64,000 nucleotides of DNA from Eubacteriales bacterium (GTDB taxonomy: Bacteria > Bacillota > Clostridia > Oscillospirales > CAG-272), in assembly GCA_045533505.1 (NCBI GenBank), contig JAZSHY010000014.1, positions 28,361-92,360 of the forward strand, read 5' to 3'. The position numbers and the translations under genes were made by a program. This document shows positions 1,279 to 42,260 of this stretch, in pieces (the first letter of the stretch is position 1; the number at the start of each line of letters is the position of its first letter). The notes under the pieces are model-generated. The model worked only from the letters and a program-made list of their open reading frames with translations, made no database searches and was not told the origin of the DNA.

Positions 1279-3000
1279 TCAGTCCACGGTTTTATCAATC
1301 GAAAAGCGTGTGATTTTTCTTGTTGTGGTTTTGGGGAACTCCTCGGTGCGGAGCTTCACGTATTCGATTTTCTTGTAGGGTGCCATGCGCGAATTCACCT
1401 TGGCAACCTCCTCATGGAAATAGGTATCGAGGTCTTTGATGCCGCGAAGGGCCAATGCCTCGGCATCGGGGAAAATCTCTGCCACAATCAGCTCACGGTT
1501 CTTATCCGAGCGGCTCTCGCCCGCATACACCACGGCCTCGGCAATCCCGTAAATGCGCGAGAGCTCGGTCTCGATTTCCTCGGGATACACATTCTTGCCG
1601 TTGGAAAGAATGATAAGATTCTTCAAGCGCCCCGTAATGTAAATCCAGCCCTCGCTGTCAAGCCGACCAAGGTCGCCCGTGTGGAAATAGCCCTCATCAT
1701 CAAAGACTGCCGCCGTGGCTTCCTCATTTTCAAAATAGCCGAGCATGACATTCGTGCCCTTGACGCAAATCTCGCCCTCGCCGTTTTCGTTTGGATTGTC
1801 GATTTTCACCTGCTCACCCACAATGCACCGCCCCACCGAGCCCGCCTTGCGGTAGTTGTTGCGGTTGCAGGAAATAAGGGGAGCACATTCTGTAATACCG
1901 TAGCCGTTCAGAATGGTGATGCCGAGGGACTCAAAGTCACGAATGATATCCGGGTTGAGCGCAGCCCCGCCCGACACGATGAGCCTCATGCGGCTTCCAA
2001 AGTTCGAAAGGACCTCGGCAAAAAGCTTCTCTCTGAGGTCAATGCCCACGCGGCGCAGGGCGTTTGAAATCTTCATCATGCGGCGCACAAGCGAAAGCTT
2101 GCCCTTCTTTTCAATGGCCGCAAATATCTTCTTATAGAAGGTTTCCACATAAAGAGGTACAAGGACAAGGTGCGTCGGGTTCTCCGCCTTCACCTCGTTC
2201 AGAAGATACCTCGTCCCGCTGCTGATGTAAATCTCAATTCCCTGCATATAATGACCTATGAGGTTTACGGTGGAGCCGAAGGTGTGGTGAGCCGGGAGCG
2301 TAAAGAGGGTTTTCTCGGGCATAGAGAAAAGGTAAATCCCGTTCGTCATATCCTCAAGGATATTGCGGGTTGTGAGCATAACGCCCTTTCCCTTGCCCGT
2401 TGTACCCGAGGTGAAGACGATGGAAACGAGCGCGTCGGGGTCAATGGGCTCCTCAAAGAAGCCGCGCTCCCCCTTCTCTATAAGGGCGCCTCCCTCGGAA
2501 ATGAGTTCGTCAACCGATGGGCACTCTCCGTCCCCCATAGGAGAAAACGAAATAAAGGCAGAGAGCGACGGCACATCGGCACGCAGCTGAAGCAGCTTTT
2601 CCTTAAGGCTCGTGCCGAAGATAAGCGCCTCGCAGCGCGCGGTGTTAAGTATGCTCGCCATATCCTCGGCGGGATACTCCTTATCCACGGGGACGACCAC
2701 GGCCCCTATTGAGCAAAGGGCAAAATAGCTGCAAACCCAGCCATAGCTGTTTTCGCCGATAAGAGCAACCTTCCTGCCGCGGAGGCCTCGTGCAGTGAGA
2801 GCGGTGCCAAGCGCGGCAACCTCCTCGTACACACGGCGGAAGGAAAGACGGACCGCATCGGCATCCGCAGGGTTTTTGCGAAAAGAGAGCGCAGGCTTAT
2901 CCCCGAAGCGCTCGGCAGCTCCCTTAAGCATATCACGCACGTCGGCATAGCTGACCGTTTCATACAACGGATAATCTTTTTTTCGGTTAGGGTACTTCAT
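1279..3000 (-). CDS. Long-chain acyl-CoA synthetase (AMP-forming adenylate-forming enzyme)
   Basis: 573-aa ORF with the AMP-binding signature FTSGTTGKGKGVMLTTRNI, GYGITE, and TGDLG..D.EGW.YITGR.K. The C-terminal KTTTRKI lysine motif is typical of the FadD/ANL superfamily. Confidence 0.9.
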   Translation of the reverse strand: MKYPNRKKDYPLYETVSYADVRDMLKGAAERFGDKPALSFRKNPADADAVRLSFRRVYEEVAALGTALTARGLRGRKVALIGENSYGWVCSYFALCSIGAVVVPVDKEYPAEDMASILNTARCEALIFGTSLKEKLLQLRADVPSLSAFISFSPMGDGECPSVDELISEGGALIEKGERGFFEEPIDPDALVSIVFTSGTTGKGKGVMLTTRNILEDMTNGIYLFSMPEKTLFTLPAHHTFGSTVNLIGHYMQGIEIYISSGTRYLLNEVKAENPTHLVLVPLYVETFYKKIFAAIEKKGKLSLVRRMMKISNALRRVGIDLREKLFAEVLSNFGSRMRLIVSGGAALNPDIIRDFESLGITILNGYGITECAPLISCNRNNYRKAGSVGRCIVGEQVKIDNPNENGEGEICVKGTNVMLGYFENEEATAAVFDDEGYFHTGDLGRLDSEGWIYITGRLKNLIILSNGKNVYPEEIETELSRIYGIAEAVVYAGESRSDKNRELIVAEIFPDAEALALRGIKDLDTYFHEEVAKVNSRMAPYKKIEYVKLRTEEFPKTTTRKITRFSIDKTVD

Positions 3001-3320
3001 TATATTTACACCTCACATTGGGGCCCGAAAGCCCGATTTCAAGGACAGTATACCGCAAAATGCAGAAAAATGCTATCTACGATTGCACCGCTTCCCTCTC
3101 ACCGATGTGGAGAACGCGGTTCGAAATTCTCCGTTCTTTTTTTCGTTTCCACTCCCCGTAGAAGCCCGCGGAGCCCGTGAGGATTTTTGTTAAAAAAAGA
3201 AAAGTTTTATTTACATAAAGAAGGGGGCTTCACAAAAAACGCCTCCTCTCGGCAACCCGTGCCGACACCCTCGGACGGAGAACAGCAACAGGCAGAGCCC
3301 GATTTCAGGAGGATTTGGAT

Positions 3321-4241
3321 ATGAAGAACAGGCAAAAAGGAGGGAGCCCTCTCGCGGGTGAGGCAGCGAGGGCTCTTTGCATCGTGCTCACTGCCGTCAC
3401 CGTGGCGGCAGGCCTCCACATCTTTGCCTATCGCGCCAATTTTTCTCCAAGCGGCATCGACGGGCTTGCCACCATGCTTCATTATCTCACAAGAGCGCTC
3501 GGCTTTCCCGTAAATCCCGGTATCTTCACCCTGCTTTTGAACCTGCCCCTTTTGCTTCTTGCCTGGTCAAAGCTTCGCCGCCGCTACGTGCTTTACACCC
3601 TCCTCTATATCGGGGTGCTCTCGCTTTCTCTCGTTTTCTACGAGGCCATCTCGCTTTATCAGTACGACTGCCTGACCGAGGGGACAAAAAACAGCCCCCT
3701 GATTGCCGCCGTTTTCGCGGGTGTCATTCAGGGCCTGACGGGAATCCCCCTGCGCCTCGGCGGCTCCTCCGGGGGCTCGGACATTATCGGAGGGCTTCTT
3801 TTCCTGCGTGCGCCGCACAAGAATATTGAGCAGCTGATATCGCTCGTCGGCTATTGCATTGTGGGGCTTGCCTTTCTCGTCTACCGCGATATAGGGGCAG
3901 CCTGCCTCTCTCTTATTTCGGTATTTGCCTGCGAAAGAGTCAGCGCAAGCCTTCTGCGCCCCACGCGGGGAGCTCTGCGCTTTGATATTTTCGCCGCAGA
4001 GGGGGCAGAGGAGGAAATTCGCCGCTTTGTGCTTTCCCGCCTAGGGCATGGGGTAACCCTCCTTCGCGGAGAGGGAGGCTTTTCCCACGAGGGGAGATGC
4101 GTTCTCGTTTGCCTCGTGGCTTACCCGCAGCTTGGCGATTTTCTCGCCTTTTTAAAAACGCAGAGGGACATCTTCTACTGCTATAACGAGGCACTCGGGC
4201 TGGGAGGCTGCTTCGTGCGCGAGGGGCGCGCCTCAGGTTGA
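3321..4241 (+). CDS. YitT-family membrane protein (C-terminal DUF2179-like domain)
   Basis: Multi-pass hydrophobic N-terminal part, then a soluble C-terminal GHGVTLLRGEGGFSHEGRCVLVCLV motif typical of YitT/DUF2179. The ATG at 3321 sits 7 nt after AGGAGG and is preferred over the TTG at 3315. Confidence 0.8.
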   Translation: MKNRQKGGSPLAGEAARALCIVLTAVTVAAGLHIFAYRANFSPSGIDGLATMLHYLTRALGFPVNPGIFTLLLNLPLLLLAWSKLRRRYVLYTLLYIGVLSLSLVFYEAISLYQYDCLTEGTKNSPLIAAVFAGVIQGLTGIPLRLGGSSGGSDIIGGLLFLRAPHKNIEQLISLVGYCIVGLAFLVYRDIGAACLSLISVFACERVSASLLRPTRGALRFDIFAAEGAEEEIRRFVLSRLGHGVTLLRGEGGFSHEGRCVLVCLVAYPQLGDFLAFLKTQRDIFYCYNEALGLGGCFVREGRASG

Positions 4242-4300: not shown

Positions 4301-4329
4301 TTGACATTGACGGTAAAAAGTAGTATGAT
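4301..4329 (+). promoter_or_regulatory. Sigma-A type promoter TTGACA-17-TATGAT
   Basis: TTGACA at 4301-4306, a 17-nt spacer, TATGAT at 4324-4329. It lies ~75 nt upstream of the 4405 ATG. Confidence 0.5.
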
Positions 4330-4404
4330 ACCAATGTACGTATTATTTATAGGAGGAGCGCGGCGCGCGTGCCCCGTCGCCCCTTAAGAAAGGATTGACA
4401 CCCT

Positions 4405-7400
4405 ATGGAAAAAACAGCTGTCCTTACTTACCTTTTGGAATGTGCGGATGCGATGAGATTGGATGATAAGCGGAACGCGCTTTCGGCCAACTACTTCATC
4501 GTGGCTCTGATAGACACCTGCCTCGCCTTGAAGGAGGGGGAGCTGAAGGCCGAGCTTGCAACCGAAGAAAATCTTGCGGAGCTGCGTGCGGCAGAGGCGC
4601 TTCTCCGGGCGAGGTGCGATATCACGCCTGCCCTTCGCGACAGAATTCTTTCCGGCGTACGGGAGGAGGGCTACAATCCGCAGCTGGATGAGTTCCAGTT
4701 CCGCAAGGCACTTTTCCGCGTGCGTGAGGAGGCCAAGAAGACCTCCGTGGAAAGGGCGGATGCCTCTCTCTACCTTTCGGTCATTCTCGAATCACCCCCC
4801 GTTCTTCTGCGCACGGCCCTCGGCATGCAGGTCATCGAAACCACCCTGGTTCCGCCGTCCTCCGGCACCGCACGGGAGGAGGCGCGCCCCACTGCCGACA
4901 GCGAGGAGAAGGGGACGAAAAAGCGCCGCAGCTCGGGCACCGCGGCAAGCAAGCCCTTCTCGCTGGACGGCTCTATCAAAAAGGCAATGGACATTCAGCG
5001 CGGGCTGCTCGAAAGGGTGGTCGGTCAGGACCTGGCCGTTGCCGCCTTTGCCTCGGGCTGCTTTCAGAGCGAAATGATTGCCGCCGAAAAGAAAAAGCAC
5101 CGCGGCCCGCTTGCCACCTTCCTCTTTGCGGGCCCTCCCGGCGTCGGAAAAACCTTCCTCGCCGAAAGCGCCGCCGAGCTCCTCGGCCTCCCCTTTCTCC
5201 GTGTGGACATGAGCGAATATGCCGACAACGACTCTCTTGTGGAGTTCTGCGGCTCGGACAATGTATACAAGAACGGCAAAGAGGGTAACATCACAAAGTT
5301 TGTGACCGAGAACCCGAGAAGCGTCATTCTTTTTGATGAAATCGAAAAGGCACACCTGAGCATTATCCACCTCTTTTTGCAAATTCTTGACACGGGCAGC
5401 ATCCGCGACAACTTCACGGACAAGCCTGTTTCCTTTGGAGAGGTAACCGCCATCTTCACCACCAATGTGGGGCGCAAGCTGTACGAGGACCCCTCGGTGC
5501 AGAACCTCGCGGCCATTCCGCGCAAGCGGGTGCTGGAGGCCTTGGCAACCGAACGAGACCCGAAGAGCGGAACCCTCATGTTCCCCACCGCCATCTGCTC
5601 GCGCTTTGCCTCAGGCAACGTCCTGATGTTCAATCGCCTCGGCACCGACAACCTCTACTTCATCACCAAGCGCGAAATTGATTCGCAGGTGGAGGGCTTT
5701 ACAAAGGCAAGCGGCATTCAGGTGGAGGTGGACCGCAAGCTCCCCACCACCCTCATCTTTGCCGCCGGCGGAAAGACCGACGCGCGCACAATACGGGGCC
5801 GCGCCTCCACCATCTTCCACGAGGAGATGTATGAGCTCCTGCGCCTTATGCGTGAATGCGGCGCTAAGGTGGAAAAGCTCAAGAAAATCAAGCTGGAGGT
5901 CTCGCTTGAAAAAAGCGGCCTCGAAACATCCTCGCTCTTTGTAGGGGCCGAAAAGCCCAAGGTCCTCGTCTTCGCCGAGGAGGAAGTTGCCGAGCGTTGC
6001 CGCCGCGCCCTCCCCTCGGTTGAGGTGCTCAGTGCAAGCGACCTTGACTCGGCCAAGGCGCTCCTCTTTAACCACGATTTTCTCCTGATACTTACCGACA
6101 TTGACTGCCGCCGTGACCGCTCCTGCCCGAAGCCTCTTAACAGAGAGGACACCGAATCGGTGGGCATGGAGTTCCTTGCCCATGCGCTCACCCTCGAAGA
6201 AAAGCCTGTCTATCTTCTGCTTGACAGGGATGACGGGCTTTCGGAGGCCGAGCGACTCTCCTTTGCCCGTATGGGCACAAGGGGCTGCTTTGCCATGGAG
6301 GCCGAGGATTTTGAGGAGCAGGTGGTGTCGCGCTGCGACGTTGCCTACCAGCAGGAGGCCGTGGCGCGGCTTGCCCGCGACAGCAAGGTGCTCTCCTATA
6401 AAACGGTGCAGTCGCTCTCGAAGGACGGCTCCCAGGCTACCGTCTCCTTCTGCGGCTTCCGCCTTGCACGTGCCACCGACAGCGACGATGCGGGAAGCAT
6501 TCTGGATGCGGCGGCGCGCCCGAGCACCCGCTTCCCCGACGTCATCGGCGCCGAGGACGCCAAGCGCGAGCTCACCTACTTCTCCGAATATCTTAAGGAC
6601 CCCCGCAAATACGCAAGGCGCGGTCTGCGCGCGCCAAAGGGCGTGCTTCTCTACGGCCCTCCCGGTACGGGGAAAACTATGCTGGCCAAGGCGCTGGCGG
6701 GAGAATCCGACGTCACCTTCCTTGCCACCGAGGGCAACCGCTTCTTAAAGCGGTATGTCGGAGAGGGCCCTGCCGCCGTGCATGACCTCTTCCGCACGGC
6801 GCGCAAGTATGCCCCTGCCATCATCTTTATCGACGAAATCGACGCGATTGCCAAGGACAGGAGCGAAGGCCGCAACGACGAGCAAATCGGAGATATTCTC
6901 ACCGCCCTTCTCACCGAGATGGACGGCTTCTCCCAGAACCCCGACAAGCCCGTCTTTGTCCTCGCCGCCACCAACTACGCGGTGGATAAGTCAAGCGGCA
7001 AATCGCTCGACCCTGCCATACTGCGCCGCTTTGACAGACGCATTTACGTTGACCTGCCGAACAAGGAGGAGCGTCTGCGCTATTGCGAAATGCGTGTTGC
7101 CAAGAGCCCCGCGATGGCCGTCAGCCGTGAGGAGCTTGAAAACCTTGCCATTCGCTCGGTGGGCATGAGCCTTGCTCAGCTGGAATCGGTCTTTGAAATG
7201 GCCCTTCGCGGCGCCGTCCATTCGGAAAACGGCACGGTAGGGGATGCTGAGCTTGAGGAGGCCTTTGAAACCTTCACAAGCGGTGAAAAGCGCAGCCGCA
7301 CCAAGGAGGCGGTGACAAGAACCGCCTGCCATGAGGCGGGGCACGCCCTGCTTTGCTGGCTGGGCGGTGAATGTCCCTCCTATCTCACGGTGGTCTCGCG

Positions 7401-7848
7401 CGGCGACCACGGCGGCTATATGCAGCACGGCGACACTGAGGACAAGGGGGTTTACACCCGTGCCGAGCTGCTCTCGCGCATTCGCACCTCGCTTGCGGGG
7501 CGTGCCGCCGAGCTCGTCTATTACGGCGAGGAGGACGGCGTCACCACGGGCCCGAGCGGCGACCTTGCCCAGGCCACCTCGCTTGCCACGCATATGCTTT
7601 GCACCTACGGCATGGATGATTCCTTTGGCCTCGCCGCCCTTTCAGGCAGCCCCGAAGGCTCCCCCTACTACGGTGAAATCCGCAAAAAAATCAACGGAAT
7701 CCTGGAGGCCGAGCTTCTCCGCGCAAGACACGCAATAGAGGAAAACCGCAGGGCGATGGACGCCCTGGTTGCCGCTCTTGTGGAAAAGAACCAGCTGAAG
7801 GGGAAGGAAATCGAAGCCATTCTTACGGCTACCGTCAAGAGGCCGTAA
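4405..7848 (+). CDS. Soluble AAA+ fusion: Clp-N-like region, ClpA/B-D2-type ATPase, receiver-like insert, FtsH-type ATPase and M41 zinc protease
   Basis: 1147-aa ORF. The first module has VVGQD..A, GPPGVGKT (nt ~5130-5153) and ILFDEIEKAH. The second has GPPGTGKT (nt 6655-6678), IIFIDEIDA and LDPAILRRFDR, followed by HEAGH (nt 7330-7344). No TM-length hydrophobic segment is seen. Confidence 0.9.
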   Translation: MEKTAVLTYLLECADAMRLDDKRNALSANYFIVALIDTCLALKEGELKAELATEENLAELRAAEALLRARCDITPALRDRILSGVREEGYNPQLDEFQFRKALFRVREEAKKTSVERADASLYLSVILESPPVLLRTALGMQVIETTLVPPSSGTAREEARPTADSEEKGTKKRRSSGTAASKPFSLDGSIKKAMDIQRGLLERVVGQDLAVAAFASGCFQSEMIAAEKKKHRGPLATFLFAGPPGVGKTFLAESAAELLGLPFLRVDMSEYADNDSLVEFCGSDNVYKNGKEGNITKFVTENPRSVILFDEIEKAHLSIIHLFLQILDTGSIRDNFTDKPVSFGEVTAIFTTNVGRKLYEDPSVQNLAAIPRKRVLEALATERDPKSGTLMFPTAICSRFASGNVLMFNRLGTDNLYFITKREIDSQVEGFTKASGIQVEVDRKLPTTLIFAAGGKTDARTIRGRASTIFHEEMYELLRLMRECGAKVEKLKKIKLEVSLEKSGLETSSLFVGAEKPKVLVFAEEEVAERCRRALPSVEVLSASDLDSAKALLFNHDFLLILTDIDCRRDRSCPKPLNREDTESVGMEFLAHALTLEEKPVYLLLDRDDGLSEAERLSFARMGTRGCFAMEAEDFEEQVVSRCDVAYQQEAVARLARDSKVLSYKTVQSLSKDGSQATVSFCGFRLARATDSDDAGSILDAAARPSTRFPDVIGAEDAKRELTYFSEYLKDPRKYARRGLRAPKGVLLYGPPGTGKTMLAKALAGESDVTFLATEGNRFLKRYVGEGPAAVHDLFRTARKYAPAIIFIDEIDAIAKDRSEGRNDEQIGDILTALLTEMDGFSQNPDKPVFVLAATNYAVDKSSGKSLDPAILRRFDRRIYVDLPNKEERLRYCEMRVAKSPAMAVSREELENLAIRSVGMSLAQLESVFEMALRGAVHSENGTVGDAELEEAFETFTSGEKRSRTKEAVTRTACHEAGHALLCWLGGECPSYLTVVSRGDHGGYMQHGDTEDKGVYTRAELLSRIRTSLAGRAAELVYYGEEDGVTTGPSGDLAQATSLATHMLCTYGMDDSFGLAALSGSPEGSPYYGEIRKKINGILEAELLRARHAIEENRRAMDALVAALVEKNQLKGKEIEAILTATVKRP

Positions 7849-7880
7849 AGGGGCCCATTCCACGGAAGATACCGCATACA

Positions 7881-7917
7881 AAAGCTGCCCAAGCCGAATT
7901 TCGGCTTGGGCAGCTTT
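7881..7917. terminator. Bidirectional intrinsic terminator between convergent genes
   Basis: Perfect inverted repeat AAAGCTGCCCAAGCCGAA/TTCGGCTTGGGCAGCTTT, flanked by an A-run on the left and a T-run on the right. Confidence 0.7.
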
Positions 7918-7931
7918 TTATTAAGTTTTGT

Positions 7932-9161
7932 TTACAAAAGCATTGGGAGGGGCGGTGTCTCGGCGGAAAGCACGATGGCATGCTCTGCCGCCTCGGTAAG
8001 CTCGGGCACAAGAGCCGGCTCAGCGGCTGAGCCCGTCAACGAAAAGAGAAAGATGAGCAGGGCAAGGAAGGTAAGGCCGCCAAGGACCGCGAGGAGAACC
8101 TTGAAAACCGAGACGGGAGCCTCTCCCGCCACCCTGCCGCTTTCCCCGTTCACGGCAAAGCGATAGAGCTTGCCGCCGTAGCGGTAGGAGGAGAGCCAGA
8201 CAGGGAGAAGAATATGCTTGAAGAGCACCCTCCTATACGTGTGGTTATACTGCATGAAGCGATAGGTATCGTACCCGAGGGACGCACGAATAGTGCTCTG
8301 CATACGCTCCTCCGCCACGGGGCGGATGCGTGCGAAGCCCTCGTCAAGCCCGAGCGTGTATCTCTCGGCCTGAAAGCCAGAAAGATAGGCGGGGTTATAG
8401 ACGTGCAGAACCTTAGTGCCGAAGGGCTCTATTTTTTTCAGCATGTTGGCGTCCACGCCCCGCGAGGCGCAAAAGGAGATATCATCAAAATACTCCCGTC
8501 GCTCCCCCGCCACGGGATACCAATCTGTCACCGTGCGCGTTCTCGTTTGCGTTTTGCCGTTGACACGGACGGTGTAGGTGACCACCCGTGTACGCCCGCC
8601 CTGCCCCGAATAGGAGGTGTCAAGGTCGGTGTCGTAGGTGAAATACGGCAGATATACCCCCTTCATATCGGGGTTATGTGCCATACGGCGGAAGGCGCGC
8701 GGCGCGAAATAACGGCGCCTTGCCCATTTGGCAAACAGGGCCTCTGCCTCCTCGCGCGAGAGCTTGTGGGGCACCATCGTCTCGGGCCTGAGAATCGGCA
8801 GAGCGGGATGCGGCTCGGTAACATAGTGGCTACCGCAAAAGGGACAGCTGACCGTCATGCTTTCTGCCTCCGAAAGGGTTTCGGCACCGCAGGCGGGACA
8901 TACGTGCGTAAAGCTCCCCTCCTCCTCCCAGTTGGGTGCGCTGACCGTGGCGCTCTCCGCGTCATACTCGTACTCGGCAGCCTCGATTTCGGGCGAGGGG
9001 ATTTCCTCGGTTGTGCCGCAGTAGGCGCAAAATAACCCTCCCTCCCTCGGGGAATATACCATGCGATTTCCGCAAGAACGGCAGGGGAATGCACAGCTTC
9101 TCGGTGGGGTGGGCTCAGCGCGGCCTTCCGTCTCCTCCCGTGTATTTTTTCTTTCGTCCAT
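7932..9161 (-). CDS. Hypothetical multi-zinc-ribbon protein with C-terminal transmembrane anchor
   Basis: 409 aa. Four CxxC pairs near the N-terminus (CRSCGN..CAYCG and CPACGA..CPFCG), a ~250-aa conserved-looking beta-rich body, then the hydrophobic helix VFKVLLAVLGGLTFLALLIFLF. No named family recognised with certainty. Confidence 0.75.
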   Translation of the reverse strand: MDERKNTREETEGRAEPTPPRSCAFPCRSCGNRMVYSPREGGLFCAYCGTTEEIPSPEIEAAEYEYDAESATVSAPNWEEEGSFTHVCPACGAETLSEAESMTVSCPFCGSHYVTEPHPALPILRPETMVPHKLSREEAEALFAKWARRRYFAPRAFRRMAHNPDMKGVYLPYFTYDTDLDTSYSGQGGRTRVVTYTVRVNGKTQTRTRTVTDWYPVAGERREYFDDISFCASRGVDANMLKKIEPFGTKVLHVYNPAYLSGFQAERYTLGLDEGFARIRPVAEERMQSTIRASLGYDTYRFMQYNHTYRRVLFKHILLPVWLSSYRYGGKLYRFAVNGESGRVAGEAPVSVFKVLLAVLGGLTFLALLIFLFSLTGSAAEPALVPELTEAAEHAIVLSAETPPLPMLL

Positions 9162-9234: not shown

Positions 9235-9477
9235 TCAGCGCTTGCCGATTTCCTCGCGGCAACGCTTGCAAATTTTTCTGCCGCAGTATTCCGCAATATC
9301 CTCTCCGCTGCCGCAGAAAAGGCAAAGGGGAAGATATTTGGAAAGCACAATGTGCTCGCCGTCCACAAAAATTTCAAAGGCATCGCCATCGCCAATGTTC
9401 ATCGTGCGGCGCATTTCCATCGGAATAACCACACGCCCAAGCTCGTCAATTTTGCGCACCATGCCGGTAGATTTCAT
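9235..9477 (-). CDS. AbrB/SpoVT-family transition-state regulator with Cys-rich C-terminal tail
   Basis: The N-terminus MKSTGMVRKIDELGRVVIPMEMRRTMNIGDGDAFEIFVDGEHIVLSKY is near-identical in pattern to B. subtilis AbrB. The C-terminus carries CLFCG...C....CKRC. Confidence 0.85.
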   Translation of the reverse strand: MKSTGMVRKIDELGRVVIPMEMRRTMNIGDGDAFEIFVDGEHIVLSKYLPLCLFCGSGEDIAEYCGRKICKRCREEIGKR

Positions 9478-9588: not shown

Positions 9589-10554
9589 TTGGAGGTACAA
9601 ACGCGATGGGAGGGCGTGCTCTATGCTGATGCTGCCGAAAACCGTGCTATGACAGAGGCCGTGGCGGAACGGCTCCTTCCCCTTTTGCCGCCGAGCGTTA
9701 CTTTGGCGCTTTCGGCGCAAAGGGCCTCGCGCAAGGAGCTTTTTGTCGCCCTTTCGGAAATTCGGCTGAGGGCAGAGCGATGCGCCTCGCTCACAGTTGA
9801 GGGCGAGAACATTCCCCTCCCCGTTTTCCTTAGCGCAGCCGAGCTGTCCTCGCAGCTTCTCCGCCTCTGTCAGGGCTCGCTTTATGCCTACCGCGAGGCG
9901 CTCGCCGAGGGCTACCTTCCGCTTTTTGACGGGATACGCCTCGGCGTAGCGGGGCGCGCCGTTTGCGAGGGCGGCAGAGTCACGGGAGTGACCGATATAC
10001 GCTCACTCTCCTTCCGTATTCCTCACCCCGTCCCCTCGGCAGCCGAGGAGGCCGAGGAGGTGTTTCGCTCTCTTGACGGGCGCGGCCTTCTCGTGTATTC
10101 GCGCCCGGGGGTGGGAAAGACCACGCTCCTGCGCGACCTCGGGCGACGGCTTGCTAACGGACGGCAGGCCAAAAGAGTGGTGCTGATAGACAGCCGCGGT
10201 GAGCTTTCGGGAGGAGACTACGGGCGGTTCGCGCTTATCGACATTCTGCTCGGCTATCCGAAGGCTGTGGGAATTGAGCAGGCCGTGCGCACCCTCTCGC
10301 CCGAGGTGCTTCTTCTTGATGAAATCGGCTCGCGCGAGGAGGCGGAGGCCATTCTCGCGGTGTCGGGCTGCGGCGTTCCGATGGTAGCGACGGCGCATGC
10401 CGCCACGCGAGAGGAGCTTTGTGCGCGCCCTGCCGTACGCATGCTGCTTGAGGCAGGCATCTTCGGCGCGCTTTTCGGCCTCGCACGGCACGGGGGGAGA
10501 GTCGTGGGAGTGCGGGAGGAAATCTTGCTCTCTCCCCGGGAGGAGGTTATATGA
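9589..10554 (+). CDS. spoIIIAA: Stage III sporulation protein AA (ATPase)
   Basis: Walker A SRPGVGKTTLLRDLGRRL and Walker B LLLDEIG. It is the first gene of a colinear AA-AH operon. The start is uncertain: TTG 9589, GTG 9616 or ATG 9649. Confidence 0.85.
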   Translation: MEVQTRWEGVLYADAAENRAMTEAVAERLLPLLPPSVTLALSAQRASRKELFVALSEIRLRAERCASLTVEGENIPLPVFLSAAELSSQLLRLCQGSLYAYREALAEGYLPLFDGIRLGVAGRAVCEGGRVTGVTDIRSLSFRIPHPVPSAAEEAEEVFRSLDGRGLLVYSRPGVGKTTLLRDLGRRLANGRQAKRVVLIDSRGELSGGDYGRFALIDILLGYPKAVGIEQAVRTLSPEVLLLDEIGSREEAEAILAVSGCGVPMVATAHAATREELCARPAVRMLLEAGIFGALFGLARHGGRVVGVREEILLSPREEVI

Positions 10555-11036
10555 CGGTCAAGCTCTGCGGAGCCTGTCTTATGCTGCTGCTCGCCACCAT
10601 GCTTGCAAGCCGCGGCCAAGCGGCCCTTCGGGAAAGGGTTGCGGTGCTTGAGGGCTTTCTTTCGCTTTTGCGGTACATTCGGGAGAAAATTGCCTGCTTC
10701 CGCACCCCTGCGCCCGATATCTTCGAAAGCTTTCACTGCGAGGCACTCAGCCGCACGGGCTTTCTTACGCAGCTGCGCGATGGGGGCATGCTCTTCGCGC
10801 TTGAGCATAGGGGGGACGGACTCTATCTTGACGGAGAGACGATGGCTCTGCTTTCCGAGTTCGCCGCCGAGCTCGGGGGCGGCTATGCCGAGGAGGAGCT
10901 TGCACGGTGTGAGCTTGCGATAGCGCGGCTCTCCGACATTCTTGCCTCCTATAAGGAAAGCCTGCCGAAGAGCACGAGGCTTTACCGCACCCTTATGCTA
11001 AGCGGTACCCTTGCGGTCATTATTGTGCTTTTGTAA
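10551..11036 (+). CDS. spoIIIAB: Stage III sporulation protein AB
   Basis: 161 aa with an N-terminal TM helix. There is a 4-nt ATGA overlap with spoIIIAA. Operon position and size match SpoIIIAB. Confidence 0.8.
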   Translation: MTVKLCGACLMLLLATMLASRGQAALRERVAVLEGFLSLLRYIREKIACFRTPAPDIFESFHCEALSRTGFLTQLRDGGMLFALEHRGDGLYLDGETMALLSEFAAELGGGYAEEELARCELAIARLSDILASYKESLPKSTRLYRTLMLSGTLAVIIVLL

Positions 11037-11079
11037 TCATATGGTAATAGGGGACAAGAACAAGGAGGAGGAAGGAAAA

Positions 11080-11274
11080 ATGGAGGTAGGTCTTATATTG
11101 AAGGTGGTGGGGGTAGGTATGCTGGTAACCGTATCCTGCCAGATTTTATCAAAGGCGGGGCGTGACGAGCAGGCCATGCTCGTCTCGCTTGCGGGAATTG
11201 TCGTGGTGCTCCTTTTGCTGATGGGAGAGATTGGAAAGCTTTATGAAGCCATACGGAGCATTTTTCAGTTTTGA
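11080..11274 (+). CDS. spoIIIAC: Stage III sporulation protein AC
   Basis: Internal ATG of ORF 11011..11274 after AGGAGGAGGAAGG. The 64-aa two-TM product is MEVGLILKVVGVGMLVTVSCQILSKAGRDEQA..., typical of SpoIIIAC. Confidence 0.85.
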   Translation: MEVGLILKVVGVGMLVTVSCQILSKAGRDEQAMLVSLAGIVVVLLLLMGEIGKLYEAIRSIFQF

Positions 11275-11654
11275 CCTTCTTAAAGCTATGCGGGCTTTGC
11301 CTCCTTGCCGCCTGCCTTCTTCTGCTTCTTCGGGAAGCGGGAGGGCGTTACCTCCCCCTCATTGCCCTCTCGGGCGGCGTTATCCTTCTTCTCTATCTTT
11401 TCGAGGAGCTTCGGCTTGTAACCTCCTTTCTGGAGGAGCTCGCGGTGGGAGACACGGTGAAGGACGTGCTCTCGCTCTCCCTGCGCATTCTCGGCCTTTG
11501 CCTTCTCACCGAGCTGACGGCAAGCCTTTGCCGCGACATGGGGGAGGGAGGGCTTGCCTCACGGCTGGAGCTTTGCGGACGGGTGGAAATTCTTGTGGTC
11601 TCGCTCCCCACCCTCGCGCGCCTCGTAGAGACCGCCGTCGCGCTTATCGGATGA
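11271..11654 (+). CDS. spoIIIAD: Stage III sporulation protein AD
   Basis: 127-aa polytopic membrane protein containing ...LCRDMGEGGLASRLELCGRV.... It overlaps the AC stop and the AE start. Confidence 0.85.
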   Translation: MTFLKLCGLCLLAACLLLLLREAGGRYLPLIALSGGVILLLYLFEELRLVTSFLEELAVGDTVKDVLSLSLRILGLCLLTELTASLCRDMGEGGLASRLELCGRVEILVVSLPTLARLVETAVALIG

Positions 11655-12745
11655 AGCGGCTCTCGCTTCTCCTTCTCCTTCTCCTTTTCCCTCTTTGCTT
11701 CTCTCTTTCGGCCACAGCCGCCGAGCCGAAGGACTATGTTGACGAGCTTTACGGAGGATTGCCCTCTCTTTCAAGAGAGGCCCTCCCCGATGAGCTCAGC
11801 GAGGAATCGCTTGCCGAGGCCATCGGCATACGTCACCTTGCCGAGGTTATGCTTTCGGGAGCCTCGGAGGCTGCGCCTCGCCTTTTGCGGATATTTCTCC
11901 GTCTTCTCGGCATGGCCCTCTTTCTTTCTCTCCTGCATCAGCTGGGCGGTGATGCGGGCGGCGGCGCGCGCGTTGCCGAGATGGCCCTCTCGGCAGCCTC
12001 CTGCCTTTTGCTTTACGAAAGCTTCTCTCCTCTTTTTATGGGGGCCGTTTCCTATCTTTCGGACATGGCAGCGCTTGCGGAGCACGCCGCCCCGCTTATG
12101 GGGGCTCTGTATGCGGCAGGGGGAAACATCGCAACGGCGGCTGCCTCGGGCGGTGTGATGGCGGCCCTCTCTCTCCTTCTTGAATTTCTCTGCGGCGAGA
12201 CACTTCTACCGCTTATACGGGTAATGCTCGGCTTTCTTCTCGTCTCCTCGCTCGGCGAGGTGCGCACCGACGGAGTCATGGCCTCCTTGCGCAATCTCTA
12301 TATGCTTCTTATCGGCTTTTTCTCGGTTCTGATTGCCGCCTCGCAGGCCTTCGGCAATGCCCTCGGGAGCGCGCGGGACAGCTTCTCCCTGCGTACCCTT
12401 AAATTTGCCGTGGGACAGATGCTGCCCGTGGTGGGCGGTACGGTTTCGGGCTCGCTCGGCACGGCTATGGCCTCGCTCGGTCTTTTGCGCGGCACGGCGG
12501 GCATCACCGTGGCGGCAGCGGTGCTCCTCCCGCTTTTACCTATTATCACCGAGCTCCTCCTCTCGCGGCTCGGCCTTGGTCTTCTGGCAGGGGTTTCCGG
12601 CATGCTCGGCGCCCCTGCGGCGGGCCGCCTCTTCTCCTCCTTTCGCTCTCTTTTTGACCTCGTGCTTGCCGCCGTCAGCGTTTCCTCCCTCCTCTTTCTC
12701 TTTATTGCGGGGAGCTTTGCCCGCTGTGCACCCGTTGCCCTATGA
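11651..12745 (+). CDS. spoIIIAE: Stage III sporulation protein AE
   Basis: ATG at 11651 (ATGA overlap with spoIIIAD) inside the longer listed ORF 11231..12745. Signal-like MKRLSLLLLLLLFPLCFSLSATA is followed by a polytopic membrane domain. The upstream 140 codons of the listed ORF overlap spoIIIAD out of frame and are rejected. Confidence 0.85.
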   Translation: MKRLSLLLLLLLFPLCFSLSATAAEPKDYVDELYGGLPSLSREALPDELSEESLAEAIGIRHLAEVMLSGASEAAPRLLRIFLRLLGMALFLSLLHQLGGDAGGGARVAEMALSAASCLLLYESFSPLFMGAVSYLSDMAALAEHAAPLMGALYAAGGNIATAAASGGVMAALSLLLEFLCGETLLPLIRVMLGFLLVSSLGEVRTDGVMASLRNLYMLLIGFFSVLIAASQAFGNALGSARDSFSLRTLKFAVGQMLPVVGGTVSGSLGTAMASLGLLRGTAGITVAAAVLLPLLPIITELLLSRLGLGLLAGVSGMLGAPAAGRLFSSFRSLFDLVLAAVSVSSLLFLFIAGSFARCAPVAL

Positions 12746-25272: not shown

Positions 25273-25516
25273 AATTCCTCCTCAGTATAAAAAGAAACCC
25301 CGCCGAGCCGTGTAAAGCCGAACTTAGCCCTGCGACAGCAGGTGGGTGCCCTCTCCGCAACATTGCGCTCCCAGCGTCCGCTGCCCTCGCGGTGCAAGAC
25401 GGCGAGGGGCGGGAGGTCTGCATCCCGAGGCGGAAGGTCGGGCTCCCTTTAAAGAAGTGTAGGCCCAATCGAGACTTTATCACGAGCTAAGCAGGAAATT
25501 TCTTTCAAATTTTAAT

Positions 25517-42147: not shown

Positions 42148-42162
42148 GGGGAAGAAATATAT

Positions 42163-42260
42163 GAAGAGTAAGCGTTGCTGCGTGAAGTGCCGTGCGGACG
42201 GGGAGTTGCCGCGCGGACGAAGGGTTCCCCCCGCGGTAGCATCGCTGCATCCCGCTTCCG
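42163..42260 (+). promoter_or_regulatory. THF (tetrahydrofolate) riboswitch aptamer
   Basis: GAAGAGUAAGCGUUGCUGCGUGAAGUGCCGUGCGGACGGGGAGUUGCCGCGCGGACGAAGGGUUCCCCCCGCGGUAGCAUCGCUGCAUCCCGCUUCC parallels the remembered THF aptamer. The shared elements are GAGUAG..GCGU.AAGUG...GGGA.GU.G.C...ACGAAG...GCGGU...CAU.GCAUCCGCUC. It lies upstream of a folate ECF S-component, the classic context. Confidence 0.75.

Follow-up and report, generated by a model that had tools for sequence, protein, structure and literature searches.

What kind of enzyme is made by a gene that places an unfolding motor of the Clp/Hsp100 type in front of the ATPase and peptidase of FtsH is the question raised by one open reading frame (ORF) in a 64,000-nucleotide stretch of an Eubacteriales genome (assembly GCA_045533505.1, contig JAZSHY010000014.1, positions 28,361 to 92,360 of the forward strand; this whole stretch is called the window below). 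An earlier note on this DNA had proposed that the frame encodes a soluble fusion of a helical region reminiscent of a Clp N-domain, an AAA module in the style of the ClpA/B/C D2 ring, a receiver-like insert, and a classic FtsH-type ATPase followed by an M41 zinc site, an arrangement that is not a textbook architecture. The frame was recovered as one ORF of 1147 amino acids on the plus strand, opening with ATG at 4405 and ending at 7848. All of the motifs quoted for it were found, each no more than one base from where it had been placed: GPPGVGKT (residues 243-250, nt 5131-5154, the position that was one base off), ILFDEIEKAH (residues 308-317), KVLVFAEEE (nt 5959-5985), FLLILTDID (6079-6105), PVYLLLD (6205-6225), GPPGTGKT (6655-6678), IIFIDEIDA (6820-6846) and HEAGH (7330-7344). 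The gene product is probably a self-compartmentalising zinc metalloprotease, active, cytosolic and driven by ATP, in which each chain carries two unlike unfolding motors. The parts of the protein are listed here with window coordinates, strand and the basis of each assignment.

4405..7848, plus strand: coding sequence of the 1147-aa Clp_N-like / AAA_2 / pseudo-receiver / FtsH-AAA / M41 protein, ATG start
4405..4824, plus strand: all-helical Clp N-domain-like module, residues 1-140 (AlphaFold2 (AF2) model and Foldseek)
4825..4977, plus strand: low-complexity linker of variable length, residues 141-191 (columns unconserved in the homolog alignment)
4978..5844, plus strand: ClpA/B/C-D2-type AAA+ module, residues 192-480 (Pfam AAA_2, TIGR02639, PDB alignments)
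5884..5901, plus strand: beta-strand before the receiver fold, residues 494-499 (DSSP on the AF2 model)
5959..6378, plus strand: CheY-like (beta-alpha)5 domain, a probable pseudo-receiver, residues 519-658 (AF2 and Foldseek)
6385..6471, plus strand: conserved beta-hairpin between receiver and FtsH module, residues 661-689 (DSSP on the AF2 model)
6514..7290, plus strand: FtsH-type (classic-clade) AAA+ module, residues 704-962 (Pfam AAA, TIGR01241, alignment with 4ww0)
7303..7821, plus strand: M41 zinc peptidase, residues 967-1139 (Pfam M41, alignment with 4ww0)

In the C-terminal half, both assignments made from the motifs held. The second AAA module is of the classic FtsH type, with Pfam AAA matching residues 747-883 (E 5.7e-52), and HEAGH belongs to an M41 peptidase, with Pfam Peptidase_M41 matching residues 967-1139 (E 1.2e-29). 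Residues 704-1136 correspond to positions 155-598 of TIGR01241, that is, to all of this model but its membrane and periplasmic part, and phmmer matches residues 704-1135 over their full length to the soluble part of Aquifex FtsH (4ww0; E 2e-72). The score against TIGR01241 is 349 bits, compared with a cutoff of 600 for the FtsH equivalog. The module has Walker A at residues 751-758, Walker B at D810/E811, a YVG pore loop at 784-786, N857, and the arginines R874/R875. In the peptidase, the site consists of H976, E977 and H980, and the 'AEE' and 'NDL' positions of FtsH correspond in the alignment to E1036 and D1053. Together with the Clp-type module described below, the profile searches recovered two AAA modules and an M41 domain, all three above the Pfam threshold.

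The catalytic competence of the chain was considered in an alignment of 119 full-length homologs of 48-66% identity. Invariant in this set are both Walker A motifs, the Walker B pairs D311/E312 and D810/E811, the sensor-1 residues N354 and N857, R400 and R461 of the first module, R874/R875 of the second, and the zinc site (H976, E977, H980) with E1036 and D1053. In a more divergent set, made of 100 representatives of 50%-identity clusters, HExxH is kept in 98 and the two Walker A motifs in 91. These sequences give no sign of a degenerate ring or a dead protease, and a protease-dead unfoldase was ruled out by the invariant zinc site.

The first AAA module proved to be of the D2 style that had been read from its motifs. 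Pfam AAA_2 covers residues 235-364 (E 3.8e-33), residues 192-446 map to the D2 half of ClpA in NCBIfam (TIGR02639, profile positions 446-685), and the ClpA, ClpB and ClpV models match at their D2 regions. Against PDB sequences, the phmmer alignments with the D2 of ClpE and ClpB cover residues 190-365, and those with ClpA and Hsp104 run on to about residue 495. The module shows Walker A at 243-250, Walker B at D311/E312, the pore-loop residue Tyr288, sensor-1 N354, R400, and a sensor-2-like R461; in the alignment with the D2 of ClpE and ClpB, Tyr288 falls on the tyrosine of their GYVG pore loop, and it is at least 90% conserved among the 119 homologs. The Clp-type module is single: the preceding D1 AAA module is absent, and residues 1-190 are occupied by the helical domain and the linker. 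It is at this linker that homologs of 1190-1280 aa vary, through K/E/A/P-rich expansions.

Residues 1-145 are modelled by AF2 as a seven-helix domain, with a predicted local distance difference test score (pLDDT) of 95.9. All of its top 50 PDB matches in Foldseek are Clp/Hsp100-type N-domains or homologous double-Clp-N domains, mostly those of ClpC, ClpA, ClpB, Hsp104 and ClpV, together with ClpD and a few others (template modelling (TM) score 0.5-0.64, probability up to 0.99, weak E-values of 0.06-0.8). Pfam finds nothing in residues 1-190, and Clp_N matches none of 42 family members scanned singly. On the model, residues 1-140 are a divergent Clp_N-like fold; the suspected kinship with Clp N-domains is supported by the fold and not by Pfam.

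The FtsH feature that is absent here is the N-terminal membrane anchor, in which two transmembrane helices flank a periplasmic domain, as indicated by hydropathy and by a TIGR01241 match that starts at position 155. The highest Kyte-Doolittle mean over 19 residues (KD19) in the 1147-aa protein is 1.45, with its peak on a helix of the N-terminal domain, compared with 2.23 and 2.83 for two control membrane proteins encoded next door, YitT and a zinc-ribbon protein. This agrees with the original impression that the ORF has no hydrophobic stretch of transmembrane length. KD19 exceeds 1.6 in six of the 119 homologs, and all six peaks fall on N-domain helices that are modelled within the globular bundle. 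As far as can be predicted from its sequence, the protein is soluble and cytosolic, and a membrane FtsH paralog was ruled out by the hydropathy scan, which found no transmembrane segment.

Between the two ATPase modules, Pfam gives nothing for residues 485-700, and the Response_reg model matches only one of 25 members scanned singly, with E 0.034. The AF2 model of residues 481-745, which includes a long fifth helix, has a pLDDT of 84 overall and of 84-98 over its core, and all top 50 PDB matches of the middle domain in Foldseek are response-regulator receivers (E about 1e-5, TMt 0.66-0.76), among them PmrA, PhoB, ArcA, KdpE, NtrC1 and NtrX. The receiver part of the proposed insert is therefore a true CheY-like fold, and the region holds in addition an extra strand and a beta-hairpin, the latter with a motif conserved in homologs (K.L.YKT.Q...A.I).

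The pocket of this fold is non-canonical, as had been suspected. Asp565 stands at the end of strand 3, in the phospho-acceptor position; all 119 close homologs have it, as do 90 of the 100 divergent representatives. The acidic pair that canonically follows strand 1 is not fixed, since position 525 is D/E in 63% and positions 526-527 are variable. After strand 4, where Thr/Ser is canonical, position 606 is Gln/Glu, with Thr in five of the 119 and Thr/Ser in about 5-7% of members, and the canonical Lys after strand 5 (position 632) is kept in 33 of 119 close and nine of 100 divergent sequences (9-28%). Because the conserved Thr/Ser and Lys are missing despite Asp565, the sequence suggests that the domain is probably a pseudo-receiver or a strongly atypical receiver, not a canonical phospho-acceptor. 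Conservation is found elsewhere on the fold, in a 22-residue loop after strand 3 (L578, N579, E581, D582, S585, G587) and, strongly, in the alpha4-beta5 segment (E616, L618, S619, F620, G624). These conserved receiver surfaces may serve protein-protein or ligand contacts, not a classical phosphorylation switch.

An unusual layout could arise from an assembly or annotation artefact in which a Clp-like ATPase gene and an ftsH paralog were merged by error. Nothing but the unusual architecture itself favours this, and the chance that it is so is minute. A word-indexed search found more than 120 homolog clusters with essentially full-length coverage (971-1282 aa), and a pattern scan with one genome per species gave 112 species matches; the pattern was built from the Clp-type-module alignment, and 80 loci were kept. 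In 76 of these 80 species loci the protein is encoded by one ORF, 1054-1281 aa long, and in the remaining four a contig end truncates it. The frame is unbroken in more than 119 homolog clusters and across 80 independent assemblies of different species, and the junction region formed by receiver and hairpin is conserved; a chimera is therefore excluded.

A full-text literature search found no published study of this architecture. The database search for the same domain order upheld the unusual architecture but not its being unique to this genome: it defines a conserved, unnamed family of gut Clostridia. Its hosts are almost all metagenome-assembled genomes (MAGs) of gut or rumen Clostridia, from Oscillospiraceae, Acutalibacteraceae, Christensenellaceae, Borkfalkiaceae, Lachnospiraceae, Ruminococcus and Coproplasma, with one cultured isolate among them, Ruminococcaceae bacterium AB4001 (locus L077). 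In databases the homologs are named "AAA family ATPase" or "ATP-dependent metalloprotease FtsH". An exhaustive search with a hidden Markov model (HMM) of receiver plus hairpin returned 265 clusters at 50% identity with E <=1e-3, 180 of them with E <=1e-10, and in nearly all of these the matched region lies at about residues 450-720 of a 1100-1250-aa protein, so the middle module is nearly confined to this architecture. The only full-length member outside Firmicutes among the 80 loci is carried by a Pirellulales MAG (L079, JABWBD010000483.1, 1549-5040); it has 40% identity in the Clp module, lies on a 5.3-kb contig, and could be a horizontal transfer or a binning contaminant.

The transcription signals and neighbouring genes in the window are as follows.

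1279-3000, minus strand: gene for an AMP-binding (acyl-CoA-synthetase-type) enzyme, upstream of the YitT gene
3315-4241: YitT-family membrane-protein gene, upstream neighbour
4301..4329, plus strand: sigma-70-type promoter-like TTGACA-17-TATGAT, 11 of 12 consensus positions
4388..4394, plus strand: Shine-Dalgarno-like GAAAGGA, 10 nt 5' of the ATG, read from the sequence
7880..7918, no strand assigned: hairpin resembling an intrinsic terminator, stem of 18 bp, with a run of A at one flank and a run of T at the opposite flank
7932-9161, minus strand: gene for a 409-aa membrane protein that has a pair of zinc-ribbon motifs at its N-terminus and a transmembrane helix (KD19 2.83) at its C-terminus
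9235-9477, minus strand: gene for an 80-aa AbrB/MazE-like protein (SpoVT-AbrB fold)
9589-12745 and beyond, plus strand: spoIIIA sporulation operon (SpoIIIAA, AB and AE by Pfam)

The earlier note had given the gene its own promoter (4301-4329), its own terminator (7881-7917) and a monocistronic look. The consensus scan recovered the promoter, one of three such promoter-like sites in 6.4 kb, and the terminator was found as the hairpin at 7880-7918. The gene at 7932-9161 converges on this hairpin, so the hairpin would end both transcripts and is probably bidirectional for the two convergent genes. Promoter and terminator are pattern matches, and a consensus match to a promoter does not prove function or expression; read in this way, the protease gene is probably monocistronic with a housekeeping-type promoter, in agreement with the first impression. 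The region's best promoter match, TTGACA-17-TAGAAT with an extended TG, lies at 9547-9519 on the minus strand and precedes the AbrB/MazE-like gene. The spoIIIA operon suggests that the source is probably an endospore-forming Clostridium-type bacterium. The locus of the closest homolog (65% identity, L081) is syntenic and has the same gene arrangement, including spoIIIA, and the zinc-ribbon gene is kept beside the protease gene there. Elsewhere in the window, the region of the AMP-binding gene contains many long shadow ORFs on the opposite strand, a tetrahydrofolate (THF) riboswitch aptamer lies at 42162-42259 on the plus strand (84 bits, gathering score 36), and a 6S/SsrS RNA gene at 25293-25500 on the minus strand (69.5 bits, gathering score 46.4).

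Across species, the gene is often found in other company. Partners were counted by tblastn, in neighbourhood statistics that ignore phylogenetic kinship, and at least one recurrent partner is present in 57 of about 80 loci. In 44 of the 80, a YbjN-family gene (PF10722, about 159 aa) is encoded no more than 4 kb away and on the same strand as the protease gene, and such a gene directly follows the protease gene in 36 of the 68 loci whose flank is long enough. Proteins of the YbjN superfamily are held to bind peptides and to resemble type-III-secretion chaperones (PMC9503650). An RyR-domain membrane protein accompanies the homolog in 19 loci and a Card1-like endonuclease-domain protein in 12, the Pfam match of the latter being just below the cutoff. 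In seven loci (L046, L047, L053, L054, L057, L071, L077) an RyR membrane protein of 600-950 aa, with a weak TrkA_N-like match, and a Card1-like protein of about 415 aa together flank the homolog, and a small 98-aa RyR protein occurs in some RyR/Card1-like loci. Genes for vWA, PP2C and a Ser/Thr kinase occur together downstream of YbjN in five loci (L014, L017, L020, L051, L055), where the cassette order is protease, YbjN, one or two vWA genes, a PP2C-like protein of about 700 aa and the Ser/Thr kinase. A triad of kinase, PP2C and stand-alone vWA is a recurring regulatory module in bacterial conflict systems (PMC7159879). No histidine kinase recurs in the 80 neighbourhoods. A further recurrent neighbour (cluster 2) was rejected as a gene, having a junk-like composition, the opposite strand and the position of YbjN; it looks like an antisense shadow ORF of YbjN.

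Ties to phosphorylation are also seen within the chain. Of ten family members of exceptional length (1550-2100 aa), six (P0207, P0265, P0205, P0240, P0260, P0229) carry a Hanks-type kinase domain at the N-terminus, ahead of the AAA_2/receiver/FtsH/M41 core, and TPR was detected in P0207 and P0205. The N-domain profile matches none of 11 long variants, compared with 71 of 80 ordinary locus ORFs, so a detectable Clp_N-like domain is lacking in the long forms. The association between YbjN and the N-domain (Fisher p = 0.02, uncorrected for phylogeny) is a hint only. In another member, P0253, residues 1366-1408 form a C-terminal RNase H1 N-terminal (Cauli_VI) domain after M41, a domain that binds hybrids or double-stranded RNA. 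In the 64-kb window, tblastn found no homolog of YbjN, RyR, the Card1-like protein, the c4 neighbour cluster, vWA, PP2C or the kinase.

For the mechanism of the protein, we infer hexameric stacking, substrate threading and the roles of receiver and partners largely by analogy with the hexamers of FtsH and of Clp/Hsp100 proteins. Six copies would stack as a hexamer, with the Clp_N-like domains at the top, on flexible linkers, capturing substrates or adaptors. In the next tier, the ClpA/B-D2-type ATPase ring would grip the substrate through its Tyr288 pore loops, and below it the FtsH-type ring, with Tyr784-Val-Gly pore loops, would feed the M41 chamber (His976, Glu977, His980, Asp1053). From its position and conservation, the pseudo-receiver may regulate the assembly or coupling of the FtsH ring; most likely it serves as a switch in regulation or assembly, or as a spacer between the rings, and not as a phospho-receiver of the classical kind. 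The YbjN-type protein, often co-transcribed with the protease in other species, could be an adaptor or client chaperone, and in subsets of the family Ser/Thr phosphorylation would be tied in through the vWA/PP2C/kinase triad or through direct kinase fusion. Given the ties to YbjN and to Ser/Thr phosphorylation, the family probably does regulated rather than bulk proteolysis. The stand-alone copy in the window would then be a regulated cytosolic AAA+ metalloprotease made from a housekeeping-type promoter.

Several points weigh against this picture. The likeness of the N-domain to Clp_N is at fold level only (E 0.06-0.8), without sequence-profile support, and the evidence on membrane segments is a hydropathy scan, not a dedicated predictor. 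The module of about 220 residues between the rings is unprecedented in stacked type-II AAA+ machines, so coaxial stacking is an assumption. More generally, oligomeric state and activity rest on sequence, single-domain models and analogy. The recurrent partners are absent from the 64-kb window and from the locus of the closest homolog, and the regulatory context seen in other species may therefore not apply to the window's clade.

Other explanations make more of the receiver, of the partners or of the sporulation genes. It is possible, if doubtful, that the family is an undescribed phosphorylation-coupled cytosolic degradation machine, an FtsH-chassis counterpart of phospho-degron proteolysis. 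A Hanks-type Ser/Thr kinase, fused or adjacent, and PP2C would then mark substrates or switch the pseudo-receiver, for which the loop with Asp565, Asp582 and Ser585 is a candidate switch. Clients brought to the Clp_N-like domain by a YbjN-type chaperone would be destroyed by the hybrid Clp-ring/FtsH-ring motor, and in some lineages a connection to RyR-domain proteins and Card1-like nuclease proteins would make the machine a conflict or stress system. An alternative built on the receiver is phospho-relay gating, in which Asp565 would be phosphorylated by a histidine kinase or a small phosphodonor and the FtsH ring would thereby be switched in its assembly or activity, in the manner of NtrC1 or DctD. 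The CheY-like fold with NtrC1 and NtrX receivers among its top matches, the Asp565 shared by all close homologs, the acidic E525-E527 after strand 1 in the window's protein, and a long helix 5 leading toward the AAA+ module would all suit such gating. However, the Thr/Ser of strand 4 and the Lys of strand 5 are kept by a minority of members, the acidic pair expected behind strand 1 varies, the Response_reg model matches a single member of 25 (E 0.034), and the 80 neighbourhoods show no recurrent histidine kinase, which together leave this explanation decidedly improbable.

Much of what has been said of the partners would fit a conflict (anti-phage or programmed-death) or signalling system, in which the protease is the effector or regulator acting with YbjN, RyR, the Card1-like nuclease or vWA/PP2C/kinase, and a specific target is degraded after phosphorylation or a nucleotide signal. 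Partners are present in 57 of about 80 loci (YbjN in 44, the RyR membrane protein in 19, Card1-like in 12, vWA with PP2C and kinase in five), some family members are fused to a kinase, and both the kinase, PP2C and vWA triad and double-AAA components of FtsH type are described in conflict systems (PMC7159879). However, the partner set is heterogeneous, the Card1 match is under the Pfam cutoff, and the window and the closest homolog are without partners, the gene being flanked by housekeeping (YitT) and sporulation genes. A comparison with PADLOC-DB 2.0 gave no specific defence-protein match, only generic AAA-domain matches (IetA, DolB, PDC-M37B, TRIP13), and such a system is considered unlikely. 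The sporulation genes could point instead to a sporulation-linked protease that remodels the mother-cell or forespore proteome in endospore-forming Clostridia. In the window, as in the locus of the closest homolog, the spoIIIA operon is 1.7 kb away from the protease gene. Very few family members come from outside Clostridia, and sigma-factor genes are found upstream in Christensenellales-type loci; yet the promoter is sigma-70/sigma-A-like, the spoIIIA linkage occurs in only about four of 81 loci, and two opposite-strand genes and a terminator separate the protease gene from spoIIIA, so a role of this kind appears very unlikely. The preferred reading remains that of an active, soluble protease with two motors in one chain.

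On this preferred reading, the ATPase and M41 chamber of FtsH have been re-used as a soluble machine with a signalling-type domain built in, and a Clp/Hsp100-type ring has been placed before the FtsH ring, in a clade order opposite to that of ClpA, ClpB and Hsp104. If active as predicted, it would be, to our knowledge, the first two-tier AAA+ protease in nature to have motors and peptidase on one polypeptide, and it would offer a membrane-free route to the study of a full-length FtsH-type enzyme and of inter-ring coordination. The recurrent links to YbjN and to modules of Ser/Thr kinase and phosphatase suggest regulated proteolysis in gut Clostridia, bacteria that are abundant but little studied, and hundreds of "AAA family ATPase" entries could get more precise names.

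Among known systems, the protein can be compared with FtsH, which has a single ATPase ring. Residues 704-1135 resemble its cytosolic AAA+ and protease part, with Walker A and B, an aromatic-hydrophobic-Gly pore loop, the arginines of the second region of homology, HEAGH, and the downstream Glu and Asp positions. In contrast, the protein has neither the two N-terminal transmembrane helices nor the periplasmic domain, scores 349 bits where the equivalog cutoff is 600, carries about 700 residues of extra upstream modules, and has YVG in the pore loop where FtsH has FVG. FtsH is described as membrane-anchored (PMC9020784).

With the Clp/Hsp100 proteins (ClpA, ClpB, ClpC, ClpE, Hsp104), the protein shares a GxPGVGKT Walker A, an LFDEIEKAH Walker B, a TTN sensor-1, the pore-loop tyrosine, and alignments over 240 residues of ClpA and about 300 of Hsp104; its modelled N-terminal domain resembles the Clp N-domain in fold, with weak E-values. 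It differs from them in lacking the D1 (classic-clade) module and the middle coiled-coil domain, and by inspection no IGF/IGL loop for docking to ClpP is seen in it. The AAA+ clades come in reversed order, the HCLR-type ring before the classic-clade ring; the protease belongs to the chain itself instead of being a separate protein, and the N-domain escapes the Clp_N profile.

Receivers are known to control both AAA+ activators and proteolysis: NtrC1 is a receiver-controlled AAA+ activator and CpdR a receiver-type adaptor of ClpXP. The receiver protein RssB controls ClpXP proteolysis (PMC7226468). As in the NtrC1/DctD-type activators, a CheY-fold domain stands in the family directly N-terminal to an AAA+ module. 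Unlike in these systems, the domain is here part of the protease chain, where an ATPase module lies on either side of it, is without the Thr/Ser and Lys, has a conserved 22-residue loop after strand 3, and has no cognate histidine kinase near its genes. The coupling of a kinase to an AAA+ protease recalls McsB, the arginine kinase that acts with ClpC-ClpP through recognition of a phospho-degron by the Clp N-domain. The likeness is conceptual only and concerns the kinase-fused or kinase-adjacent members; the family kinase is a Hanks-type Ser/Thr kinase and not an arginine kinase, the window contains no kinase, a Clp_N-like domain was not detected in the kinase-fused members, and no residues for phosphate binding were recognised.

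Among published double-AAA relatives of FtsH, the protein of the 'FtsH ternary system' comes closest (Kaur, Burroughs, Iyer, Aravind 2020, eLife; PMC7159879). According to the section that describes it, it has two FtsH-type modules, the first of them inactive through loss of P-loop and Walker B, is accompanied by MoxR and vWA partners, and occurs in deltaproteobacteria, actinobacteria and planctomycetes; the same section makes no mention of M41, a receiver or a Clp-D2 module. On that description, the two have in common that they are soluble, with two AAA+ modules of which the second is an active FtsH type, and that vWA proteins occur with them in multi-gene systems, whereas the first module of the present family is of Clp-D2 type with intact Walker A and B, no recurrent neighbour cluster was identified as MoxR, and vWA is found in five loci only. 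The family belongs among the AAA+ proteases, as a variant with a new layout.

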